A stretch of DNA of 32,000 bases from an uncultured archaeon (GTDB taxonomy: Archaea; Asgardarchaeota; Lokiarchaeia; Sigyniarchaeales; Promethearchaeaceae), in the NCBI GenBank assembly GCA_964426185.1, contig CAYRPF010000001.1, positions 62,328 to 94,327 of the forward strand, in the 5' to 3' direction. The notes under the pieces are model-generated. The model ran no database searches. It saw only the letters and a list, made by a program, of their open reading frames with translations, and was not told the origin of the DNA. The position numbers were made by a program, and so were the translations under genes. Of this stretch, positions 30,462 through 32,000 are shown piece after piece (position 1 is the first letter of the stretch; every line of letters begins with the position of its first letter).

Positions 30462-31244
30462 TTAAATCTTGGAGAATATTATATTATTTCTTATTTTTTC
30501 ACACTTTTTATTGAATTCATCTAAATTGTTATCTGAAAGAATCAATATACTATCTTCTTTAAACGAATATAATTCAAGAAATCTCGATAGATATTTTAAC
30601 CAATGTTTTATTTCATTTGTACAATTCCATATTGATTTTGTAAATTTAATGAAATCATCTCTTTCAATAGTATCTGTTTTCTCAATTTCATTTTTCTTAT
30701 CCCTTTTTTTTCTTCCATATATATTTTTACTGAAAACAACTCCATGATCATAATTATTCTTGATTTTACTTCTATCAGATATTCTTTCATTATTATAGGA
30801 TAAGATTACTTCTCCTCTCATTAAATAGCCTTCTTTAATGATATTGGGGATAATGAATGAGTGTAAAGGGAAAAACCGTTCCTTATACTCATTGTGAATA
30901 ATAACAACTAATCTGCCCCCATTTATCAGTAAAATTCTTAAATTAGAAATTAATTTTGCGATTTTTTCAATAAAAACATCAATTTGATCAATTTTTTTAT
31001 CTGATATCTTTAAAATTATTAGATGAATGGATTCTTCAGGTAAATTACTCAATAAATCTTCAATTTCAAGAATTTTGCCGTAATATTCTTCATTGATGTC
31101 TTCGGAATTATCAATTATCTTACATTTTTTTTCTTTCGGTATTCCATCATATAATCGAGAAGAATAAAATTGGGTTGCATCATGACCTTCCCGCTTTGTT
31201 CCACCAAATGATTGCGTTTTAGTTCTTTCTCTTTTCATTTTCAT
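30462..31244 (-). CDS. Methyltransferase-fold protein lacking catalytic and SAM-binding motifs
   Basis: LPEESIHLII (no SPPY), LINGGRLVVII, GYLMRGEVI, VFSK, FTKSIW, LELYSFKEDSIL (no DPFxGxG). Confidence 0.72.
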   Translation of the reverse strand: MKMKRERTKTQSFGGTKREGHDATQFYSSRLYDGIPKEKKCKIIDNSEDINEEYYGKILEIEDLLSNLPEESIHLIILKISDKKIDQIDVFIEKIAKLISNLRILLINGGRLVVIIHNEYKERFFPLHSFIIPNIIKEGYLMRGEVILSYNNERISDRSKIKNNYDHGVVFSKNIYGRKKRDKKNEIEKTDTIERDDFIKFTKSIWNCTNEIKHWLKYLSRFLELYSFKEDSILILSDNNLDEFNKKCEKIRNNIIFSKI

Positions 31245-32000
31245 TCTTCTTTTTCATTTTTCCATGTAAGTATTGATTTATTCTCCTATTTGCCAATTCC
31301 ACGTATTCTATATTAATTTCATATCCAATATATTTCCTTTTAGCAGCTAATGATGCAATTGCTGTTGATCCTGAACCCATAAATGGATCTAATACAATAT
31401 CATCTATATCTGTAAAAAGCCTAATAATTCGATATGGCAATTCTACTCTAAATGGGGCTGGATGATTAACTGTTCTTGCGCTTTCTGCTCCAAAAGTCCA
31501 TATATTTTGACATAATTCATTATCACTAATGACGATTGATTTTGATTCTACTTTAAGAGAAATATCATTTATTTCATTTATCTCAAGTTCTTCATCTGAT
31601 TTAGAAGCTATAATTATATATTCATGAACGTCTCTTAAAGATGGATTTGAAGCAGATTTCCAACTTCCCCATGCACAAGAACTTCCTGCACTTGCAGCTT
31701 TATTCCAGATTATTTCTTGATGCACTGAATAACCTATATTATACAAAATTTGTATTACATAACAATCCAGTGGAATATATGGTTTTCTCCCAACATTGGC
31801 AATATTAACAGCACATATACCACTATCTGTCAATACTCGATATACTTCTGAAAAGACATTTATTAAAAGGTTTAAATATTCTTTTAAAGTTAAATTTTCA
31901 TCATAATCCTTTGTTACGTTATATGGGGGGGAAGTTACCATTAATTTTATTGAACCATCAGGTAAATCAGACATTGATTGAGCATCAGAATGGTAAATAT
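31219..32000 (-). CDS. Beta-class N4-cytosine-type DNA methyltransferase (5' end beyond window)
   Basis: VTSPPYN, EVYRVL, HEYIII, HPAPFRVELP, DPFMGSGST, IGYEI. The frame stays open to the window edge (IYHSDAQSM). Confidence 0.9.
   Translation of the reverse strand, partial: IYHSDAQSMSDLPDGSIKLMVTSPPYNVTKDYDENLTLKEYLNLLINVFSEVYRVLTDSGICAVNIANVGRKPYIPLDCYVIQILYNIGYSVHQEIIWNKAASAGSSCAWGSWKSASNPSLRDVHEYIIIASKSDEELEINEINDISLKVESKSIVISDNELCQNIWTFGAESARTVNHPAPFRVELPYRIIRLFTDIDDIVLDPFMGSGSTAIASLAAKRKYIGYEINIEYVELANRRINQYLHGKMKKKNENEKRKN

Follow-up and report, generated by a model that had tools for sequence, protein, structure and literature searches.

An intact class-beta methyltransferase and its catalytically dead paralogue in Lokiarchaeia: a likely heterodimeric DNA N4-cytosine methyltransferase

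Methyltransferases (MTases) of class beta, e.g., M.PvuII, M.RsrI, M1.MboII, TTHA0409, M1.HpyAVI, CcrM, and M.EcoP15I, are generally homodimers with division of labour; in EcoP15I and CcrM, only one protomer catalyses the reaction per binding event, with its partner serving to recognise or hold the second strand (PMC7544214). The same review lists heterodimers in which motif IV is eroded for eukaryotes only, namely MTA1–MTA9 and METTL3–METTL14. Another described system of relevance is ThaI, which cuts CG/CG and is accompanied by the cognate M.ThaI, an MTase reported to form N4-methylcytosine (m4C) at CGCG (PMC11033074; PMC3025569). Here, a stretch of 32,000 nucleotides from the genome of an uncultured archaeon of the Promethearchaeaceae (Asgardarchaeota, Lokiarchaeia) is considered; it spans positions 62,328 to 94,327 of contig CAYRPF010000001.1 (GenBank assembly GCA_964426185.1) and is referred to below as the window. 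Two overlapping genes at its end, designated A and D, encode an intact class-beta MTase and a catalytically dead paralogue of this type of enzyme. It is probable that the two proteins form a functional heteromeric (pseudo-homodimeric) class-beta MTase, likely a heterodimeric DNA m4C MTase which evolved from a homodimer. In the literature searched, the coverage of which is incomplete, no description of a prokaryotic active/dead MTase heterodimer, or of an Asgard methylome, was found.

Genes A and D at the window locus

The two genes and their landmarks are as follows:

Gene A: 31219 to 19 nt beyond the window end, minus strand; 266 aa, intact class-beta MTase core
Gene D: 30462–31244, minus strand; 260 aa, catalytically dead paralogue with the class-beta MTase fold
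N-terminal extension of D: 31125–31244, minus strand; residues 1–40, with a basic start followed by TKTxxFG, REGHD, and FYSSRLY
A/D overlap: 31219–31244, minus strand; 26 nt, the stop region of A lying over the start of D

The reading frames and the 26-nt overlap, as given in the initial annotation of the window, were confirmed, the overlap by direct reading of the sequence. Gene A starts with GTG at G000:C1:94346 (G000 denotes the window's genome), and the overlap shrinks to 20 nt if D begins at its second ATG. Translational coupling of the two genes is likely. A scan of the locus for promoters and terminators was uninformative, since it relied on a bacterial consensus and the host is an archaeon.

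The product of A was initially described as an active-type SPPY/FMGSG enzyme, and so it appears: it matches the Pfam model PF01555 (N6_N4_Mtase) over positions 1–220 of 221 (E-value 1.3e-47, 163 bits vs. a cut-off of 26.7), and both SPPY (residues 30–33) and FMGSG (residues 213–217) are intact and arranged in the order characteristic of class beta. Pfam places A in PF01555, with no match to MT-A70, and motif IV of A is not of the DPPW type. The likeness to METTL3–METTL14, initially put forward as an analogy and not a claim of orthology, is rightly kept at that level, A and D being of the PF01555 type.

The affiliation of D is less apparent. It yielded no Pfam or NCBIfam match, and none to PF01555 even at E ≤ 1. 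Direct BLASTP comparison with A gave a weak alignment (24% identity over 89 aa, E 3e-4), insufficient alone, so that homology was settled by family searches. In these, phmmer related D to ca. 200 PF01555 proteins of ca. 300 aa from Asgard archaea, other archaea, and bacteria, with E-values from 1e-22 to 1e-33 and 30–36% identity over ca. 90% of the length of D. Hence, the collinearity of A and D represents real homology and not chance; every motif pair initially listed as collinear was found in the same alignment columns. The D sequence is devoid of SPPY, the WGSW loop of about ten residues, HPAPF, FxGSG, the motif II acid, and the C-terminal helix; in the alignment, LKISDKK stands where the family has TSPPYNV and LILSDNN where it has LDPFMGSG. 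Thus, the initial claim that D had lost exactly motif IV, the HPAPF segment, motif I, and the WGSW loop stands as to these losses but not as to the word “exactly”. The same loss of catalytic motifs and of motifs binding S-adenosylmethionine (SAM) was recorded in ca. 30 D sequences.

The fold of D has been retained: in the AlphaFold2 model (predicted local distance difference test, pLDDT, 84.9; predicted template-modelling score, pTM, 0.82), the top Foldseek matches are all class-beta MTases (2ZIE, 1G60, 1BOO, 8S9O, and 6PBD), headed by TTHA0409 (PDB 2ZIE, E 4e-13, template-modelling score 0.61–0.67). The chains of MTA1 and METTL3 follow far down the list, at E ca. 1e-6. These findings correct the public annotation, in which D is labelled “hypothetical protein” or, wrongly, active methylase. 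A search of the window's genome for a second D-like gene found none.

Division of parts between A and D and its distribution

Comparison with full-length relatives revealed a feature missed by the initial annotation. These relatives make up a PF01555 family, designated F, of ca. 300-aa proteins harboring a conserved N-terminal extension of ca. 40 aa (TKTxxFG, RExHD, FYxSRLY) and an SPPY core. Protein D keeps this extension, or arm, and is closer to F (ca. 30% identity) than to A (17% in the multiple alignment), while A is ca. 50% identical to the core of F and has lost the extension. With a stop codon just two codons ahead of its start, A has no room for the extension. In an alignment of 64 sequences of D and F, the arm residues T10, F13, G14, H21, D22, F26, Y27, and Y32 never vary; no solved structure covers this segment. 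An exhaustive profile search retrieved D-type proteins (E ≤ 1e-61) that group into ca. 20 clusters at 50% identity, one of them including a protein of Ca. Lokiarchaeum ossiferum. In every D from these clusters and from the loci below, the extension is present and SPPY, WGSW, HPAPF, and FxGxG are all absent; in every A, all four motifs are present and the extension is absent. Judging from these alignments, each of the two proteins retained what the other lost, i.e., the loss is complementary.

Two variants of this layout deserve mention on their own. The D protein of Harpocratesius sp. (P0007, L010:5001-5927, plus strand) carries a low-complexity (K/R)TQTQ repeat of ca. 48 residues before the arm. 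A metagenomic protein of 775 aa (P0156, L041:4001-6328, plus strand) combines the domains in reverse order within one chain: the arm and a dead core, then an active SPPY core lacking the arm, then a C-terminal extension. Its dead core has AAPT for SPPY and DPYAFGH for DPFxGxG; the host is probably bacterial, and the neighbours include plsY-like and IS1595 genes. By its sequence, P0156 looks like an independent instance of the same division of parts, which may therefore have arisen more than once.

The initial annotation had suggested looking for the paired or fused arrangement in other Asgard genomes, and both were encountered. At all eight loci with separate genes for which DNA was available, A lies directly upstream of D on the same strand. 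Besides the window, these are L010 (Harpocratesius sp.), the metagenome contigs L011 and L012, and loci of Promethearchaeum syntrophicum MK-D1 (G011; L013/L024), Promethearchaeum sp. (G013; L014/L025), G005 (L015), and G010 (L016). The junctions range from the 26-nt overlap to a 25-nt gap, the overlap outside the window being 20 nt at most. For a further D (P0009), the table of called genes places a 272-aa PF01555 gene directly upstream. The neighbourhoods of the pair are unrelated between loci and include a ribosomal cluster, a major facilitator superfamily (MFS) transporter, a ThaI restriction endonuclease, and a PHP gene. In two genomes of Harpocratesius, the genus of the window's genome, A and D are fused into a single reading frame in the order A, basic linker, D: the fusion in G001 (617 aa) is identical to a protein named for Ca. 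Harpocratesius repetitus, and that in G002 comprises 600 aa. The same layout is displayed by a GC-rich protein of 540 aa.

Among 40 relatives, D is confined to the family of the window's genome, where it occurs in six of the 13 genomes besides G000. The F gene was not seen in six of the seven pair-bearing genomes (G000 and five of the six relatives), and other genomes possess F and no D. Such a distribution would fit the A–D pair standing in for F. Still, the two can coexist: at L025:523-4609 (G013), four genes are located together, the first encoding a full-length MTase of the F type on the opposite strand and the others A, D, and a ThaI-family nuclease, in this order. An MFS transporter gene is a repeated neighbour of F (L019, L022, L023) as well as of the pair (L010, L011), which hints that the duplication took place at one chromosomal locus, in place.

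Protein D evolves under constraint. Its alignment has 38 invariant columns, the 12 sequences compared being 36–65% identical to the window copy (vs. 56–74% for A), and no frameshift or stop was found in ca. 30 D sequences. The ratios of nonsynonymous to synonymous substitution rates (dN/dS) were estimated by the Nei–Gojobori method (NG86) and are approximate where dS exceeds 1; dS from YN00 was unstable for most pairs. Between G011 and G013, dN/dS was 0.24 for D, 0.27 for A, and 0.13 for the restriction endonuclease; between the window and Harpocratesius sp., where dS is saturated, it was 0.15 for D and 0.14 for A; for F, it was 0.22 (G012 vs. G007). Overall, D is under purifying selection (dN/dS 0.15–0.24) equal to that on A.

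In a maximum-likelihood (ML) tree, D forms one clade (support 100), and so does A (support 92). The clades mirror each other internally, the fused forms are nested within both, and the order of falling identity to the window copy is identical for A and D. When D and A were constrained together, the tree was 14.7 log-likelihood units better than the free tree (p of the approximately unbiased test, p-AU, 0.75). These data are compatible with, and even favour, one duplication of an F-type gene, though they do not prove it, and no firm conclusion is drawn as to the donor.

Predicted complex, probable target, and rival explanations

The dimer itself is a prediction. The A–D complex received an interaction prediction score from aligned errors (ipSAE) of 0.89 (0.89–0.90 in three runs) vs. 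0.00 for the best of three controls. Among the pairs used for calibration, 58 of the 80 solved complexes attained this ipSAE mark, as did 2 of the 110 mismatched ones. The three runs had at least 65% of the contacts in common, with a partner pLDDT of at least 79. The predicted interface is pseudo-symmetric, residues 75–108 and 119–132 of A facing residues 118–165 and 189–205 of D. Its asymmetric part consists of residues 29–38 of D, i.e., the end of the arm, and of Tyr33 (from SPPY) and residues 42–48 of A, all of which are without symmetric counterparts in the list of contacts. In the model, the arm end probably touches Tyr33 and residues 42–48, a contact which the pair list does not show. 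Of the 38 D-invariant residues, 18 fall in the predicted interface vs. 9.1 expected (p 5e-4); with the count restricted to the core, the figures are 15 of 26 vs. 6.1. Mid-interface, a His invariant in F and D (H128 of D) occupies the same position as an Asp found in at least 90% of A sequences (D85 of A); a change from a symmetric His/His contact to an Asp/His pair would account for this. The AlphaFold2 model of the natural 617-aa fusion reached a pTM of 0.81 despite the disordered linker, so the two halves are confidently placed relative to each other. The first ca. 30 residues of the arm are of low confidence in the models of the D monomer and of the fusion, as would fit a segment that becomes ordered only on DNA or on the partner.

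The linkage with nucleases points to DNA as the substrate. A ThaI-family restriction endonuclease (PF15514, E 7e-30 and 2e-30) is encoded directly downstream of D in MK-D1 and G013; the nuclease of L012 is split into two fragments. In another metagenome-assembled genome (MAG), the ThaI endonuclease is found beside a full-length F-type SPPY MTase and, in a further one, beside an A-type MTase at the contig end. The scan of contigs for PF15514 returned two loci, and the word-index search with the MK-D1 nuclease returned Promethearchaeota relatives only. SPPY-type class-beta enzymes, such as M.PvuII and N4CMT, are typically N4-cytosine MTases. Taken together, the sequences suggest that the pair is most likely a DNA m4C MTase of restriction–modification origin. 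By analogy with ThaI, CGCG is probably the target in the relatives possessing the ThaI-type nuclease; for the window's copy, the chances of m4C in CGCG being the target are about even. As a separate observation, four palindromes of 4 bp are under-represented in the window's genome, namely CTAG (observed-to-expected ratio, O/E, 0.57), GTAC (0.64), CCGG (0.69), and GGCC (0.72), which may be the mark of other restriction systems, whether still present or since lost.

As to the origin and operation of the pair, we infer an ancestral M.ThaI-like enzyme of the F type, ca. 300 aa long, with the extension and the SPPY core, presumably a homodimer like other class-beta enzymes. Its gene would have been duplicated in the Promethearchaeaceae, with complementary loss to follow: A would have retained the SAM pocket and the catalytic motifs and shed the extension, and D would have retained the extension, the fold, and the dimer interface and shed all catalytic and SAM motifs. 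In the resulting enzyme, A would transfer the methyl group, probably to cytosine N4, and D would keep A in the dimer geometry, supplying the conserved arm in trans and/or contacts with the non-target strand, so that one strand would be methylated per binding event. The action of the arm of D in trans on A is put forward tentatively, at somewhat below even chances. A stronger version is unlikely, namely that the arm acts strictly in trans, completing the site of DNA binding or catalysis in the partner protomer, and that the orphan pair serves as a housekeeping epigenetic writer expressed together with ribosomal genes and is not a defence remnant; a strictly trans arm would explain why the catalytic subunit could shed it while the dead subunit must keep it.

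Several points weigh against a heterodimeric m4C MTase of this kind. The high complex score could come from the likeness of A and D to solved class-beta homodimers; the complex was predicted with author-supplied alignments sharing rows of the F family, and, the model being driven by the alignment, the concentration of conserved residues in its interface does not count as independent evidence. Since the prediction covered the heterodimer only, A may be active alone. In the free quick ML tree, D falls inside the F family and not beside A, and the D stem is long (2.5 substitutions per site), so the origin of D is uncertain. No ThaI homologue was found in the window or in the rest of its genome, which is 92% complete, and the pair is thus an orphan there. 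The CGCG target is extrapolated to the window's copy from relatives whose A is only 56–59% identical; CGCG is not depleted in the window's genome (O/E 0.97), which says nothing either way on specificity.

Alternative explanations differ mainly in the part they assign to D. The notion that D is a decaying, functionless remnant of a tandem duplication, with A working alone as a homodimer, draws on the absence of every catalytic and SAM motif and of any Pfam match in D, which also evolves faster than A. It is very improbable in view of the uninterrupted reading frames, the invariant columns, and the A-like dN/dS reported above; moreover, D persists at each locus whatever the surroundings, and two genomes encode it as an in-frame fusion with A. 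The initial annotation had likewise favoured a functional pair of an active and a scaffold or recognition subunit over decay, and this reading gained support from pairing, fusion, conservation, and predicted binding, as well as from dN/dS of the dead copy, which it had proposed to examine along with heterodimer models. Alternatively, D might be a regulator of A and not a working subunit, i.e., a brake or timer limiting methylation, comparable with control proteins of restriction–modification systems. The tight predicted interface touching the catalytic Tyr33 and the WGSW-loop region of A would suit such a role, as would translational coupling, but a permanent fusion is hard to square with a titratable inhibitor, the arm kept by D is invariant in active full-length enzymes, and, since no MTase other than the pair accompanies the nuclease in MK-D1, protection of the genome must fall to the pair. 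On this balance, a regulatory D is improbable.

It is also quite improbable that A is self-sufficient and D has a separate job, e.g., as a DNA-binding protein reading CGCG or m4C, the operon being merely common to both. The need of A for D does rest on inference, and the arm of D is basic and highly conserved; still, the D-invariant residues concentrate in the predicted A-binding surface, A is short of the arm that all full-length enzymes keep, and the fusions and mirrored phylogenies point to a joint function. The last alternative concerns the substrate. At the window locus, the pair is situated inside the rpl34e–cmk–rpl14e block with no nuclease nearby, and single-stranded nucleic acids are substrates of some class-beta enzymes (PMC7544214), as would suit a housekeeping rRNA or tRNA MTase. 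However, this ribosomal context is unique to G000, the pair being located elsewhere in G001 and at all other loci; orthologous pairs reside in ThaI-type restriction–modification cassettes, and the occurrence of the pair among relatives is patchy. This reading was rejected on genomic context as extremely improbable, and the initial suggestion of RNA substrates found no support, the ThaI-type link pointing to DNA.

Genomic setting and comparison with known systems

Read along the minus strand, the block begins with rpl34e, which falls just outside the window, and continues with A, D, cmk, a third MTase gene, and rpl14e. The placement of the pair between rpl34e and cmk is specific to the window's genome; in the congener G001 and other relatives, no gene separates rpl34e, cmk, and rpl14e. 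The third class-beta MTase (28900–29814, minus strand, 304 aa, with DPPF and FMGNG; PF01555 E 4.5e-36) is unrelated to the pair and lies between cmk and rpl14e, so that MTase genes are inserted on both sides of cmk in G000 alone. This genome (3.26 Mb) has 21 PF01555 matches, 19 of them above the cut-off and several in open frames of 700–1000 aa; its complement of class-beta MTases is unusually large. Upstream of rpl34e, a 239-aa open reading frame (L003:2763-3482, minus strand) is found ca. 0.55–1.3 kb past the end of the window.

Both Lokiarchaeia in culture, MK-D1 and L. ossiferum, possess the pair, and close relatives offer three natural forms of the enzyme: single (F), split (A plus D), and fused (A–D). 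With the catalytic motifs on one chain and the conserved arm on the other, the division of parts is clear, and the cognate ThaI-type nuclease gives a ready protection assay. This makes the pair a tractable system for the role of the non-catalytic protomer in class-beta dimers.

The ThaI system of Thermoplasma acidophilum (R.ThaI, PDB 3NDH, PF15514) resembles the pairs of MK-D1 and G013, which precede a PF15514 nuclease; a related MAG combines the nuclease with a single F-type SPPY MTase, and SPPY fits an N4-cytosine enzyme. The systems differ in that M.ThaI is described as a single MTase, whereas A–D comprises two polypeptides, one of them dead, and the window copy is without the nuclease genome-wide. 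Eukaryotic METTL3–METTL14 (RNA m6A) and ciliate MTA1–MTA9 (DNA 6mA) share with A–D the combination of an active subunit and a motif-IV-eroded paralogue, as well as a distant common fold with D, as reflected in the Foldseek matches; they are obligate heterodimers, and the A–D heterodimer is predicted. Unlike A–D, they are eukaryotic MT-A70 enzymes acting on adenine and needing extra RNA- or DNA-binding modules, and their duplication was independent. If the proposed reading is true, A–D would constitute a prokaryotic counterpart of the METTL3–METTL14 logic from the Asgard lineage, independently evolved. Active and inactive paralogues replacing a homo-oligomer are also known from the eukaryotic tRNA m1A58 MTase Trm6–Trm61, the prokaryotic TrmI being homotetrameric; this enzyme differs from A–D in belonging to an unrelated MTase class with an RNA substrate.

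The nearest structural relatives are the class-beta homodimers, which crystallise as dimers (TTHA0409, M.PvuII, M.RsrI, M1.MboII, M1.HpyAVI, and the rotifer N4CMT, 8S9N; PMC7544214). Among them, TTHA0409 of Thermus thermophilus (2ZIE/2ZIF/2ZIG) provides the best sequence match (E 2e-44) along with the best match to the fold of D. Unlike A–D, these homodimers have two intact active sites and no N-terminal extension, the alignment of TTHA0409 beginning at profile position 59. Finally, M.EcoP15I (Mod2) and CcrM show the asymmetry of protomers within a dimer, even though their protomers are identical and both catalytically competent; against this background, A–D looks like the same asymmetry made permanent and, if true, would be a natural prokaryotic case of class-beta dimer asymmetry fixed in genes.

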